From positions 62,001-102,393 of the forward strand of contig QPGO01000241.1 in NCBI GenBank assembly GCA_008632985.1: a DNA stretch of 40,393 nucleotides. Direction: 5' to 3'. This DNA comes from Psammoneis japonica (Eukaryota). The notes beneath the pieces are model-generated. The model was not told where the DNA came from and did no database searches. It saw nothing but the letters and a program-made list of their open reading frames with translations. Positions 15,980 through 24,976 of the stretch are shown one piece after another. Both the position numbers and the translations under genes were made by a program. Position 1 is the stretch's first letter; each line of letters starts with the position of its first letter.

Positions 15980-17260
15980 ATGTCTGCATCCAGCAGCTCT
16001 GCCACTAGAAAAGAAGAACAAGAAGAAATCGAAACGGCAGCTCAGCACCAGCAATGGCTGCAACAACTGAACCCACTGCTGAGCTGGCATGCCCATCAAC
16101 GATTGCAGCATCAACTGAAAATGCACCCAACAATTGCCATGGAAGCTGTCATGGCCCAGATTGTTGCTGAAGCAGAAGCAAAGACAAAGGAGGAAGCAAC
16201 AACTGAAACAGAAGCTGCTGCCAAAAAAAGAGCACATTGTTTCCTCCTGCGCAAAGGCCGAAGTGCCGACAACTTCTCAACTGATTGAGCAAGACTGGAA
16301 GAAGAAGTGCTTTAAGCTTGCCAAGTTCAAGCAAGTCAATGGTCATTGCAACATGCCCATTGATTTGATGTCTCTTTGCAGCCAATTGGGTGCAACAGCA
16401 GCACATGGAGCACACGAGATTTTCATTGGTTTTCTCGAGGGCCGACACGGTCATGAGAGGCAGCACCATGAACAAAGACAAGATAAAGTTGAAAATGGAA
16501 ATGAGCTTTGTGTTTGAAAGGCAATTGACAAATGAAGAATTCAAATGGAAAGAAAACTTCAAATTGCTTTGGTGGTGTTAAGACAAATGTGGACACTGCA
16601 ATGTTCTCGTGAATGACAACCTCATGGAAGAGGAAGAGTTCAAGGGTTTGGGTGCTTGGGTCAGCAGAGCATGCTTCATGGCTCAAAAGGCTGCTGCAAC
16701 ACCCAATCCAACAATGACTCAGGAATGCGTGCAGAGGCTCATTGATCTGGGGCTGGAGTTGGCACCCAAGCAGGAGAGAAGACAAAAGTCCGACACCGCA
16801 GTTCACGGTGACACTGTGGAATGGATTCAGGCCAACAAAAAGAATGCCGGTGCAAGGTGGGAGAAGCATTTTCAAGAAATTAAACAGTGCAAGGAAGAGA
16901 ATGATCACACCAAGGCACCCAACAAGCATCCTTTGCACACTCTTGGGTTGAGGTTGAGATGCAGTGCAAGGAGTGCACCAGGTGGCAACACTGCGAAGCG
17001 CATCAAAACTCGATGCAAACAAGATGCAGAGACCAGCTGTCATTGGATTGGTTTGGGATAAAAAAGAGACTGACATTTGAGAAAAATCTCAACCAATGGG
17101 TCAAGTGCCACCTGGACAACAATGGAGATGACCCACCTTGCAGACATCCTTCCGGCAGATGGGTCTCCCTCATGAGAGAAAAACATGCTGCAATGAAGCA
17201 ACAAACAGGTTTCTTCCTCCAATGAAGAGGATGAAGAATCCAAGGAGGAAGAGAAAAAAA
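15980..17260 (+). pseudogene. Degenerate helicase-associated (HA) domain repeat protein
   Basis: Repeats W.K.F.KL..FKQVNGHCNMP, WKENFKLL, LGAWVSR, ECVQRLIDLGLE and WEKHFQEIKQCKEENDHTKAP, spread over several frames with stops. Confidence 0.75.
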
Positions 17261-17699
17261 GAGAAGCAACTTTGCATCAGAATGGCTTTCATGCACAGGG
17301 GGGTCAACATCTGCACTCTTTGGCTCTGCATTGCAGTGCACAACCCTTTTGAGCTCGGGTCCTCATGCCAAGTCTGTTGGTTGATGGGTGAGATGGGGGA
17401 TTGTTGGTGCACTGCTGTGACATGTTGGGTCACATGTTGTCCCTCTGCCAACCAAAATGGGCTCAGTGCTGTGCAGTTTCACTGCCACACAACAAATGCC
17501 TCACTCACTTTGGCTGCTTGCCTTGTTCCAAAACTCTTCCTTCAGCAAGTCAGTCCCGCTGTGACTGAAAAAGTTGTGTTGCCCATGGAGCATGTTTTGT
17601 TGCCACTGATGCTTTGAGAAGGAAGCTGGGATGCAATGGTGGCAATTTGCCACACATCAACACATCATTGTGTTCTTGTTTGTTGACACCCTCTGTCTT

Positions 17700-19210
17700 G
17701 TGCTTTTTGCTGTCATGAATGAAAGAGATGGTGTTTGGTTGATGGCTGAGGGTGCCAAGTTCAGCATCAGATTTCTTCTCAACCCCTTGAGTGCTTTGTT
17801 TGGTGATTGTTGCCACCACAGGTTGCATCAAGAGAATTGCAGTTCTTATCAGCATGTGCCATCTCAGACAAAGAGTGAGTCATTGTTGTTTTCTCTCTTG
17901 TTTTCTTAAATGTCAAACCATTTTTGCAGCACTCATCTTTTAATTGCAATGTGTTTGTTGCATGGAAGTGTCAGACAAGCATGTCACACCTCCATCCAGG
18001 ATGGACTTGGGAAGAAGATGAAAATGGGGGCAACTTCTGCTTTGCTCGTGCCCAACCATTTGGCTGCAAGGAAGAGTGCAAATGAGAGAACTCATGAAGG
18101 ACCCAAAGAGTTTCCAATTGAAAAGGCAGCTGCAAGTGAAACCCACAAAGACAAAGCCATTCAAGATGCAGTGGGTTCTTCTTCCATGTGGTTCAAGACA
18201 AGTCATGATGAATTGCCCTTAGAAAAGGCAGCTGCAAGCAAGACAGTCAAAAACAAAGCAGAGCATGAGGTTAAAAATTCCTCCACTGTGTTGTCTAAGA
18301 TGAGCCATGAACTTTTACAGCTGTTGGAACTCTTTGAGGACAAGTTGGTTGCTGAATCAAGGATGATTCTCAATCAACATCAAGGTGATCTAGACAGCAC
18401 AGCAGAGGCTGTGTGCAAAGGGTCTCTCCCCACAGTGGGAATCACCCTCAACCCATGAACAACTCTCAGAAAAGTGTTTTCATGAGGGTCCTTTTGTCAT
18501 TGTCATTAAGAATTAATGATCACATGTGCTTTCCTGCCAAACATGAGAATGACAGCAGAACATGATGCCAAACTGCTTGTTGATGGATCCAGTGACTTTG
18601 GGAGTGGAGCACACCACAGTTTCATGGTCTTGGGTGAGGAGGAAGTCAAGGAAACTGTGGATTGCCCCCATGAATGTTGCACTGACAGTGATTGTGGCAA
18701 TGACAAGATGTGTGCAGCAAATGGATGTGTCTGTTGCCATGAATGCTGTGGCAACAGTGACTGTGGAAGCAATGAGTTTTGCTCAGACAGCAATGAGTGT
18801 TTGGCAAATGTGAGTGCCCCAATGGCAACAATGACTGCACTGGAAGTGATGTTTGCATTGATTGCAAATGCACTCCAGTCTGTGTGATGAGCAATGATTG
18901 CCCTCCAGATCACAAATGTCAACAAGAACCTGGTGGGTGGTTTGCACCTTTCAGTGCTGCAGCAATGATGATTGTGGGAGTGATGAGATTTGCTCAAGCA
19001 ATGCTTGTGCCTGTCGCCATGAATGCTGCAGCAATGCTGACTGTTCCAGTGATGAGATGTGCTCAAACAATGTTTGTGCCTGCTGTCATGAATGTTGTTG
19101 TGCCAACAATGATTGCCCCCTGGTGGACAATGAGGAGTGTGAAATGACCAAAATGCAGAAAATGAAGAGATGCAGTTGAGCAACAATTGAGTTGCATGAA
19201 CACCTCACAT
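17700..19210 (+). pseudogene. Degenerate, internally deleted paralog of the Cys-rich membrane-protein gene at 35820-40118
   Basis: GPKEFPIE vs GPNEFPME. SKMSHELLQLLELFEDK is identical. KLLVDGSSDF vs KLLVDGSGDF. HECC..SDC repeats. The 3' flank AGATGCAGTTGAGC is shared (~19168 and ~40221). Confidence 0.88.
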
Positions 19211-19889
19211 GTTTGTTTTTAAACCCCAATCCCCACCTGCACTGAGTCCCCCATGTCCACATGCCAGGCACACCCTGCCTGACCACCCCACAAACAGCTC
19301 GCAACTGACTGACACAGAATCTCTCTTCTGCTTGTGCTTTTTGTAGCTGTTTCTCTGCATTTGAGTTTCAATGATTGTCCTCATTGATGAGGATTTTTTC
19401 TCATGCATCCCATTTAAATTGCATTCAGAATCTTCATTGTCGGGGACCATTTGAAGACTTGTCTCTCCAAACCCTGTCGTGTCATCTCAAACCACAAAAA
19501 GACACTGGCGCCAGCCATGGAGAGCTCTGGCTCATCATCAGCAAGCTTGGATTTGCCCCTCCCTGGTTTTGCCCAAAAGAAATGGTTGCTGACCTTTGTT
19601 TCTTGTCTTGTTCAGACAGCAACATTGCATGGCATGGCTGTCATTTCCAACTGTGTTTGGGGTGCTTCGTTGCTTGGTGCTGCCTCATTGCTTGGCATTC
19701 CTCCCAGCTCCAATGCTGCTTCACCAGCTCCACAAGATGTTGGCCATGCCATTTTGTCAATCAAGTGACAATCTGCATCAGTTGCTCTGGAGCTCTCTTG
19801 ACAAGCTCCTTGTGTGGTCCCCAAAGCTCTGCATGAATGGTGTCACAATTGGTCTGGGAAGTGATCCCTCTGAATCAAGGTTGACACAA

Positions 19890-23861: not shown

Positions 23862-23918
23862 CATGTCATCATGTGACATGAGCCAATGCAATGTGATGTC
23901 ATGTGACATCACATGATG
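23862..23918. repeat. Degenerate pentanucleotide microsatellite
   Basis: ATGCA ATGTG ATGTC ATGTG ACATC ACATG from 23886, with a similar tract at 23862-23881. Confidence 0.6.
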
Positions 23919-23934
23919 AAAAACAAAAGAATGA

Positions 23935-24300
23935 ATGACACCAGATCCCAATCCCGGTGCAGCTGCTGGAGCTGTTATTCGGATGCCAGCTTTTGTCACA
24001 GGTGCGAAGAGCATGATGTTCCTCAAGGTTGCAAGACAAGCGGCGCAGTGCTGCAAAACTGTTGGCCGAGATTTGTCGGCAGTCAACATGCATTGGAATC
24101 CCGTCCTCAAGAACTTCCAGGAAGCTTGGAAGGCACTCAAGGGCAGGAAGAGTGAGGATGATCCAGAAGTGCCGAGGATCACCAAGTCACTTCCGATTGT
24201 GAAGTGGACCGAGGCCTTTCGTGATCATCTACAATGTGTGATCGGGACTGGGACTGTTCCACTCTCATGCGTCACCCGAGAAACGGTTGCAGTTGACATG
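23935..24300 (+). mobile_element. Ty1/copia (CoDi-like) gag fragment
   Basis: KNFQEAWKALKGRKSEDDPEVPRITKSLPIVKWTEAFRDHLQCVIG...PLSCVTR resembles the diatom copia gag motif ...KWTEAF...VIG.R.IPL.YV.R, as recalled. Confidence 0.7.
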
Positions 24301-24976
24301 ACAGCTCGAAACAAGGAACAGGGCGAGAACAATAATTGTTGTACAGCAGGCAGACTCTTTGCTCTACTCTCTACTACTAGCTAGTAGAGAGGGCAGGTGA
24401 TGACAATGACCACTCTCTGCAGTGCAAATCGATCTAGCTACAGTAGAGTAGAGTTCGAGATCGCGAGAAATATGTGTATTTCCGTGCACTGAAAGTCTCA
24501 TTCCTCTCATGACTGCTTCGGCCAAAGCTGTTGTGACTCCCTCTGCCGCAGGTAGCCTCCTACTACAACATTACTCTCTAAGTAGAGAGAGGTGGATAAA
24601 CATTCGAAAGTAGCAACTACCTTTTAGTTACCTCGTACACCGCCATCGATCGAGAGTTCGAGAGAAAGTACCAAATTATCTGCACTGTTGTTTCTTCTTA
24701 CTTTCAACGAAAAGTACTCTACGCTAGAGTAGAGCTATCCCTAACCGCAACCTCTATCACTCGATACGTCGGTTTCATATGCAGCACATGCACTCTCCAT
24801 CTTCGCCTCAAGAAAGCATATCGATCAATCCTAATCCATTCACAAGTGACTTGATCATTCGTCACTATGGTTTCATCTGCAACATGCATTGTCAATCTGC
24901 TCACAAATATGCAGCTTAGCCATCCCTAATCTTTTCACAAGTAGCTCACTCCCTTGAACGTCGGGCTGTGGCACTC

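Follow-up and report, generated by a model that had tools for sequence, protein, structure and literature searches.

Strand-symmetric loss of TpA, decoupled from loss of CpG, in an island of transposon and gene remnants from Psammoneis japonica

Fungal repeat-induced point mutation (RIP) changes C to T mainly at CpA, creating TpA, and mutates both copies of a duplication. In mutation-accumulation lines of the chlorarachniophyte Bigelowiella natans, 230 of the 231 mutations found in two viral insertions, which are integrated giant-virus and virophage DNA, were A>G or T>C changes, all of these at TpA and giving TpG and CpA (Mettrop et al., 10.64898/2026.01.13.699255). The available parts of that preprint also report 124 clusters in the B. 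natans genome that are poor in TpA, rich in CpA and TpG and carry transposase and reverse-transcriptase domains, and they propose an ADAT2-type deaminase as the agent (10.64898/2026.01.13.699255). In diatoms, transposons are described as CG-methylated, and DNMT5a maintains CG methylation in Phaeodactylum tricornutum (PMC9998398). Here we describe a window of 40,393 nucleotides from Psammoneis japonica, a probable diatom (contig QPGO01000241.1, positions 62,001 to 102,393 of the forward strand; all coordinates below are those of the window), in which two blocks of DNA are depleted in TpA and CpG steps (hereafter TA and CG). Block 1 is the main subject. We consider it probable that its footprint reflects TpA-specific, strand-symmetric DNA hypermutation of the B. 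natans kind, overlaid on a slower CpG decay in islands of dead DNA. Full-text literature searches returned no report of a TpA hypermutation signature in diatoms, the B. natans preprint of 2026 being the only report of the signature that they found.

The depletion of TA and CG in block 1 is real and extreme. In all 1-kb windows starting between 16,001 and 23,001 the observed/expected ratio (o/e) was 0.03-0.10 for TA and 0.02-0.33 for CG, with TG at 1.66-2.26 and CA at 1.59-1.90, compared to about 0.5-0.9 for TA and 0.85-1.3 for CG in 1-kb windows from the rest of the 40 kb. Positions 15,970-24,332 hold 37 TA, 85 CG, 929 TG and 948 CA among 8,362 dinucleotides, whereas the DNA outside both blocks holds 1,091 TA and 1,404 CG among 24,365 (Fisher tests; p-value: 6e-95 for TA, 1e-93 for CG), so that the share of TA is 0.44% inside and 4.5% outside, a depletion of about 10-fold. 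The 300-bp windows of the core contained at most 6 TAs everywhere, against a mean of 13.4 and a 5th percentile of 5 outside. The share of pyrimidine-purine (YpR) steps is nearly constant (23.9% in block 1 versus 24.7% in the left flank) and G+C is unaltered (0.467 versus 0.463), while TA+CG falls from 10.8% in the left flank to 1.5% in the block and TG+CA rises from 13.9% to 22.5%, as expected from transitions within the YpR class.

The edges were fitted by two-change-point maximum likelihood on YpR steps. The TA change points of block 1 lie at 16,006|16,019 and 24,330|24,333, delimiting an unstranded TA-depleted domain at 16,019..24,330 with 36 TA among 1,988 YpR steps, versus 280 among 1,391 in the scanned flanks; both TA edges are abrupt, within 13-100 bp. 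A CG-depleted core, also without strand, covers 16,038..23,949 (64 CG among 1,897 YpR steps; o/e 0.02-0.32 by segment) and is followed by a right edge zone at 23,955..24,330, in which TA o/e is 0.10 and CG o/e 0.70. An earlier sequence-only reading of this DNA had set the extent of the block at 15,980-24,330 and had described a loss of TA and CG within it; the fitted TA edges nearly coincide with that extent, and the counts above bear out the loss.

The direction of change can be read from a duplicated gene. Block 1 contains a mutated partial copy (18,275..19,142, + strand) of a Cys-rich gene with 69-bp repeats, recognised by nucleotide identity to an unmutated gene at 35,772..40,118 (+ strand; CG o/e about 1), which served as the reference copy. 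The two are 71.8% identical over 433 nt in the four-letter code and 90.7% identical over 484 nt in a purine/pyrimidine code. None of the 16 TAs of the unmutated copy is kept in block 1, where they read CA (7), TG (5) or TT (4), and a single one of its 36 CGs is kept, with 22 now TG and 8 CA. As a control, 57 of 75 TG and 23 of 37 CA steps are kept in the same comparison. The partner copy (36.06-37.74 kb) is untouched, with TA o/e at 0.5-0.6 and CG at about 1, and because this paralog, 17 kb away, is unmutated, the block copy must have been altered where it now lies or after the duplication.

Protein families point in the same direction. Tyr is absent from 15 of the 18 block-1 open reading frames (ORFs) listed, among them a 358-aa ORF (19,885-20,958) with 0 Tyr, 24 Cys and 26 His, for which a search limited to longer proteins found no homologue. 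In a fragment of a family of about 530 aa, four columns with a Tyr consensus read C, C, H and C, and an invariant Arg reads C. In a Mutator-like element (MULE) transposase remnant, for which columns were read from an alignment with 93 of 96 homologues, consensus Arg residues have become Cys (TGC) and His (CAT), and an invariant Gly of the family has become Arg. Together, the paralog comparison and the protein families show that the changes ran from TA to TG/CA and from CG to TG/CA, and that the genes are dead.

To the extent covered by the available parts of the B. natans preprint, the two systems have in common the A:T>G:C change at TpA with both products (here 12 of the 16 paralog TAs became CA or TG) and the confinement to discrete regions, which here are two domains of transposon and pseudogene debris, putatively silent, with normal flanks. 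They differ in the host, a chlorarachniophyte there and a probable diatom (a stramenopile) here, and in the targets, viral insertions there and transposon debris with dead gene copies here. As to the host, a kinesin encoded in the window is identical to no recorded protein; among the 120 matches listed the best reaches 63% identity, and those whose names include an organism are all diatoms or carry a diatom label (a Bacillariaceae MAG, Phaeodactylum tricornutum, Nitzschia sp. and a truncated MMETSP label), the best of them at 54-60%. Long exons and introns of 78-107 nt also suit a diatom. TA loss is near saturation here (o/e about 0.05), compared to a Rho of 0.45 for the nucleocytoplasmic large DNA virus (NCLDV) region of B. 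natans (10.64898/2026.01.13.699255), and CG is lost as well (85/8,362 versus 1,404/24,365), decoupled from TA and possibly by a separate process. The footprint is best filed as a variant of the B. natans TpA hypermutation, in a lineage of another supergroup, in islands of transposons and pseudogenes, at saturation and with CpG decay overlaid.

The TA- and CG-poor sequence was reproduced independently. A public DNA run (X1) contains 90% of the words sampled from 15,001-25,000, and its contigs across block 1 (word depth about 57-64) differ from the window at 2 of 1,470, 13 of 2,434, 1 of 509 and 2 of 2,049 letters. These contigs also have indels of their own relative to the window, so they represent another haplotype or strain and not the same consensus, and their agreement on the depleted sequence makes an artefact of base-calling or polishing very unlikely. 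Modified DNA is able to mislead long-read base callers, and the dinucleotides affected here are those that bear modifications in some protists; a footprint created by sequencing, by base-calling at modified bases or by polishing would draw on both facts. Against it stand the separate run, with the same sequence at a word depth of about 60 and scattered differences and indels, and the frameshifts and Tyr to Cys/His replacements at conserved columns, which fit genuine decay, and we give such an origin almost no chance.

Two single differences between the window and X1 are of anecdotal interest. Positions 20,240-20,241 are TG in the window and CA in X1, as if a single ancestral step had been hit twice independently, but this is one case. 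Just beyond the left edge, X1 reads CA at 15,963, where the window has TA. These differences hint, anecdotally, that two lineages resolved identical ancestral steps in different ways.

The products of the hypermutation are strand-symmetric. TG and CA number 926 versus 941 in block 1 and 832 versus 779 in block 2, and neighbouring TG/CA products are alike no more often than expected by chance (z 0.27 in block 1, -0.5 in block 2); the left flank shows a mild clustering of like products (z 3.5). No strand-processive run of TG or CA was detected in this test of neighbouring products, which argues for independent hits at each site on either strand. As all four recognisable remnants of block 1 lie on the + strand, the equality of TG and CA also means that there is no bias relative to element orientation. 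The sequence-only reading had noted both products on the same strand, as the counts now document, and had proposed to set A>G against T>C relative to element orientation, a comparison that proves symmetric.

The same symmetry excludes strand-biased editing of RNA or cDNA intermediates. ADAR- and APOBEC-type enzymes also produce clustered transitions against selfish elements, and ADAR prefers U before the A, but they act on RNA or single-stranded cDNA, with strand bias and on retro-copied sequences only, whereas the changes described here are symmetric and include a DNA transposon and host gene copies. Editing of retroelement RNA or cDNA intermediates by such enzymes before insertion would agree with the U favoured by ADAR before the edited A, which the B. 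natans preprint mentions (10.64898/2026.01.13.699255), and with the resemblance of block 2 to a copia remnant. The symmetric products in both blocks, and the equal damage to the DNA transposon, an HA-domain pseudogene and the host gene copy, make editing before insertion highly improbable, and on this point the sequence-only reading, which had argued that ADAR/APOBEC editing of retroelement intermediates is no fit, was right.

The TAs that remain are not a random sample of contexts. The 70 TAs left in the two blocks differ in their flanking bases from 1,056 TAs outside (chi-square; p-value: 5e-26), with TTAA over-represented 9.6-fold and CTAA/TTAG 3.6-fold, and with ATAC/GTAT (0.09-fold), GTAC (0.14-fold) and ATAT (0.19-fold) under-represented. 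An additive rule, in which a preceding T protects, a preceding C is neutral and a preceding purine sensitises, fits all ten context classes and makes RTAY the preferred target; it draws on 70 sites only, and some of these TAs may be newly arisen instead of survivors. The pattern suggests that RTAY was hit best and TTAA least, and would be a first hint of an extended target preference for TpA hypermutation. Surviving CGs are mildly enriched in CCG/CGG (p-value: 6e-4). A match of the contexts to those reported for the amphioxus deaminase BjADAT2 (GAA and TCG; PMC10354150) was tried and failed.

The context rule can be read from either base of the step. TpA is its own complement, so a change that begins on thymine would leave an identical footprint: a TET/JBP-type oxidase could make 5-hydroxymethyl- or 5-formyl-uracil in silent DNA, which would pair with G and give T>C. 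Some algae and kinetoplastids carry modified thymines in their DNA, and thymine mispairs once oxidised. An A>G change on one strand and a T>C change on its complement look alike in the sequence, and the preference itself, with a purine favoured and a T disfavoured 5' of the T, suits both bases. On the other hand, nothing in the window speaks for an oxidase specifically, and the sole study of the signature proposes, in its available parts, adenine deamination (10.64898/2026.01.13.699255); we regard a start on thymine as a minor possibility and proceed with deamination of adenine.

TA loss and CG loss are decoupled. Across eight segments of block 1, TA/YpR is homogeneous at 0.012-0.026 (p-value: 0.97), whereas CG/YpR in the same segments ranges from 0.004 to 0.196 (heterogeneity p-value: 6e-14; 3.6e-4 without the last segment). 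The CG domain of block 1 ends at 23,949|23,955, and at three of the four block ends CG depletion stops short of the TA edge, by 380 bp (block 1, right), 770 bp (block 2, left) and 780 bp (block 2, right). In these three edge zones, where G+C is higher (0.52-0.53), TA o/e is 0.10, 0.11 and 0.00 and CG o/e is 0.70, 0.61 and 0.53, the latter compared to 0.15 in the block-1 core. Hence the earlier claim that one and the same TA/CG loss runs through the block without a break stands for TA, which is uniform, and fails for CG, which varies between segments and is kept in the last 380 bp. Likewise, the proposal of a mutator acting on chromosomal DNA stands in that the changes are at the DNA level and on both strands; a single mutator for both losses does not agree with their differing edges and uniformity.

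The simplest reading would be two processes, a fast one saturating TA everywhere and a slower CpG decay whose depth would depend on age or on distance from the centre. The CG methylation described for diatom transposons (PMC9998398) would make ordinary deamination of 5-methylcytosine a sufficient cause of the CG loss. Decay of methylated transposons has in common with the present case the symmetric change of CG to TG/CA (30 of 36 paralog CGs), the transposon-rich, putatively silent DNA and a depth that varies as expected from age, but it cannot explain the loss of TA, which is the stronger and more uniform signal here.

One deaminase guided by chromatin or by the elements could instead hit both the A in TpA and the C or 5-methylcytosine in CpG of silenced DNA, the latter less efficiently. 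Both losses always occur together in this window, in the two blocks and nowhere else in the 40 kb; the left edges of block 1 coincide within 30 bp (TA 16,006, CG 16,035); and TG and CA arise symmetrically from both. Enzymes of the ADAT2 type that deaminate A and C in DNA exist, namely BjADAT2 of amphioxus (PMC10354150) and, as cited in the B. natans preprint, ADAT2 of Trypanosoma brucei (10.64898/2026.01.13.699255). However, the edges lie 380-780 bp apart at the other three ends, CG loss differs about 50-fold from segment to segment against a flat TA loss, the context effect is strong for TA and mild for CG, the process measured in B. natans touches TpA alone according to the available text (10.64898/2026.01.13.699255), and the GAA and TCG contexts given for BjADAT2 in the parts of that report available (PMC10354150) do not match. 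A single agent is thus unlikely, and we retain the reading of TpA hypermutation overlaid on CpG decay.

The recognisable content of block 1 consists of four remnants on the + strand. An HA-domain pseudogene at 16,119..17,058 extends over at least two frames and has no Tyr codon; PF03457 is matched in one frame at 16,582-17,058 with an E-value of 9.4e-7 and 29.5 bits, above the cut-off of 28.4, and in another frame at 16,119-16,514 with an E-value of 0.009, in agreement with the HA-domain gene proposed earlier. Within the copy of the Cys-rich gene, 18,294-18,344 corresponds to the gene's CUE-like N-terminal segment, and a 69-bp tandem repeat lies at 18,955-19,094. Its paralogy to the gene at 35.8-40.1 kb, suspected from the sequence-only reading, is confirmed by the comparison above, whereas the label of surface protein finds no support, as the gene matches no Pfam family and its N-terminus shows a weak CUE-like match and no evident signal peptide.

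The third remnant is the frameshifted MULE transposase at 21,053..22,192, with motifs at 21,167-21,199 and 21,348-21,380 and a SWIM-type Cys/His motif, CxCx(n)CxH, recognised by eye at 22,148-22,192. The remnant itself matches the ZSWIM1-3 RNaseH-like family of Pfam with an E-value of 8.9e-4, and its ORF at 21,171-21,569 matches 96 proteins; fifteen of these were checked, and each matches PF10551, with a score above the curated cut-off in 14 cases; PF04434 (SWIM) is also present in 4 of the 15, so the MULE assignment made earlier holds. No convincing terminal inverted repeats of the MULE segment were found in the four-letter or the purine/pyrimidine code, and mutation may have erased them; the block edges likewise showed no convincing terminal inverted repeats or long terminal repeats in either code. 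The fourth remnant, at 23,935..24,301, is the fragment of the 530-aa family (residues about 60-200), with 54-61% identity to six homologues. Neither the fragment nor these homologues, which are stand-alone proteins of 483-543 aa, match a Pfam family, and the label of copia gag given to this fragment could not be verified, there being no Pfam gag match. Three stretches of the block (17.1-18.1, 19.15-19.9 and 22.35-23.9 kb) hold no recognisable element and may be host spacers or element DNA. Meaningful Pfam matches were obtained for 3 of the 78 ORFs of at least 60 aa that overlap block 1, and Rfam recognised no RNA family in the window.

The surroundings of the edges bear on how the block was targeted. 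On the left, the ORF that opens with the ATG at 15,980 is crossed by the edge after about 30 bp, about 640 bp upstream of a divergently oriented gene for a GNAT acetyltransferase, and the right edge lies at most about 30 bp from the end of the homology to the 530-aa family and about 300 bp from the 3' end of an expressed gene at 24,631-27,184. The sequence-only reading had inferred that the mutator acts within a chromatin domain; judged by the criterion that it set itself, whether the depletion stops at element edges, boundaries this sharp suit junctions of elements or insertions no less than a chromatin state that spreads.

RIP, like the process described here, is an irreversible transition hypermutation on both strands of repeated or foreign chromosomal DNA that kills transposons and duplicated genes, but it creates the TpA that is depleted about 10-fold here, and it mutates both copies of a duplication, whereas the partner copy at 36.06-37.74 kb keeps its TA and CG. 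Targeting by homology or by an insertion junction, RIP-like or guided by small RNAs, instead of by a sequence-blind spreading chromatin domain, would agree with the TA edges sharp to 13-100 bp, with the proximity of the right edge to the end of an element fragment, with a block 2 that the DNA run shows to be multi-copy (word depth reaching 235-268, versus about 56-60 in the gene stretch 24,339-27,006) and with a recognisable block-1 content made entirely of transposon remnants and a duplicated gene piece. It agrees less well with the untouched partner gene, with a TA loss that is uniform across unrelated neighbours and the three stretches lacking a recognisable element, and with the DNA run showing block 1 (depth about 60-100) as single-copy at a likeness of at least 90%. 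Such targeting is possible, if on balance not the way we would expect the island to have been marked.

Taken as TpA hypermutation overlaid on CpG decay, block 1 would, like block 2, be an island of inserted and duplicated sequence, now dead, within the nuclear DNA of a probable diatom, and two transition processes would act on it in the chromosome, both turning self-complementary YpR steps into TG/CA. The first would be a fast TpA-specific A:T>G:C hypermutation that hits either strand equally and each site independently. It would have removed about 90% of the TAs uniformly over all sequence classes of the island and would stop within tens of bases at the junction with DNA of normal composition beside expressed genes. 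Its leading candidate agent would be a DNA-acting adenine deaminase of the TadA/ADAT2 type. In the natural tRNA substrate of ADAT2/TadA a U precedes the target A. Enzymes of this conserved family are able to deaminate A and C in DNA, although the DNA contexts reported for BjADAT2, GAA and TCG, are not TA or CG in general (PMC10354150). The second process would be a slower decay of CpG to TpG/CpA, most simply because 5-methylcytosine is deaminated where transposon DNA is methylated, and its depth would differ by segment and fade towards the island edges.

Besides the joint occurrence of the two losses, the coincident left edges and the small number of sites behind the context rule, several points weigh against this reading. 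Whereas the composition, the direction of change, the strand symmetry, the decoupling and the reality of the sequence are established here, we infer the enzymatic origin, the methylation, the silencing and the relative speeds of the two processes. The available text of the B. natans study mentions neither CpG nor diatoms and reports no CpG effect (10.64898/2026.01.13.699255), and the one amphioxus enzyme that acts on both A and C of DNA has GAA and TCG as its preferred contexts, and not TA, in the accessible part of its description (PMC10354150). Divergence between the window and X1 is only weakly higher inside the block (20/6,753) than outside (4/4,040; p-value: 0.036). Polarising the differences between the window and X1 (40 of 161 inspected) as evidence of ongoing activity was rejected, as their direction is unreadable without an outgroup or third strain: almost all YpR steps of the block are TG or CA, so any transition creates TA or CG.

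Beyond the locus, one may tentatively ask whether diatoms possess an enzymatic genome-defence mutator that acts on chromosomal double-stranded DNA and destroys TpA, with RTAY preferred, and CpG on both strands of silent islands until no Tyr codon and few CGN Arg codons remain. This would be a stramenopile counterpart of RIP working through adenine deamination, shared with chlorarachniophytes and possibly ancient in the stramenopile-alveolate-rhizarian (SAR) group; in this general form we consider the proposal doubtful. If TpA hypermutation does operate in P. japonica, it would be more than a peculiarity of a single species or of insertions of viral origin. Transposons would be erased past the reach of domain searches, Tyr-free ORFs that can mislead gene prediction would be left behind, and local mutation rates in ecologically dominant algae might vary by orders of magnitude. 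A natural A-to-G enzyme that works on chromosomal DNA with a short sequence preference may then exist, which would be relevant to evolution and to base editing, and the decoupling of a fast TA loss from a slow CG loss would offer a possible built-in clock for dating insertions.

Block 2, the second TA-depleted domain, covers 27,352..34,988 (unstranded), and its CG-depleted core is confined to 28,117-34,202. CG is less depleted in this core (o/e 0.29) than in block 1, while TA is equally depleted. On the + strand, 29,325..31,796 resembles by eye a Ty1/copia remnant with the integrase before the reverse transcriptase. The Pfam matches are weak, rve at 29,325-29,663 (E-value 0.065) and RVT_2 at 30,633-31,796 (E-value 0.14), both far under the cut-offs; the block as a whole is probably what is left of a Ty1/copia element. 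Its reverse-transcriptase-like ORF contains, at 30,767-30,851, a perfect 42-bp tandem duplication (two copies, 100% identity), and as this has neither TA nor CG, it postdates the hypermutation.

Between the blocks, a spliced and transcribed gene of normal composition occupies 24,631..27,184 on the - strand, with introns at 25,394-25,471 and 26,275-26,381. It is represented by a 2,389-nt contig (depth 38) with CT..AC joints in X2, a run that is RNA-like, as judged from such spliced joints, and that also covers part of 15,120-15,395. The gene matches no Pfam family, and the two blocks end about 170-300 bp from the ends of its transcript. At 25,609, X1 and X2 share a 20-nt insertion relative to the window. 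Within the blocks, X2 contains three short pieces only, of which those at 18,297-18,344 and 19,068-19,097 resemble transcripts of paralogs and that at 34,144-34,237 lies at the right edge of block 2; cover this sparse is no evidence of silence. The 3' flank of the spliced gene, just beyond where block 1 ends on the right, contains at 24,340-24,600 short palindromic stretches rich in CTCTCTACTA/TAGTAGAGAG, and a short, palindromic self-inverted match at 24,310-24,375 is the only inverted match near an edge.

The unmutated gene at 35.8-40.1 kb carries Cys-rich tandem arrays at 38,742-40,083 and 37,204-37,927, with units that recur every 147/159 bp (up to 5.8 copies) or 69/78 bp. The arrays have a lowered TA o/e of 0.25-0.5 and a raised TG of 1.8-1.96, with CG at about 1. 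This dip in TA is probably a matter of codon content, namely the TGY codons of Cys, a TA-only footprint being the alternative.

In the left part of the window, the assembly has 13 Ns, one at 14,337 and a run of 12 at 14,378-14,389, about 1.6 kb left of block 1. A repeat of 40-60 bp occurs there in four copies, direct and inverted, at 2,077-2,137, 3,459-3,509, 4,230-4,267 and 5,458-5,518, with 90-92% identity, and could represent either a short dispersed repeat or the termini of a small element.

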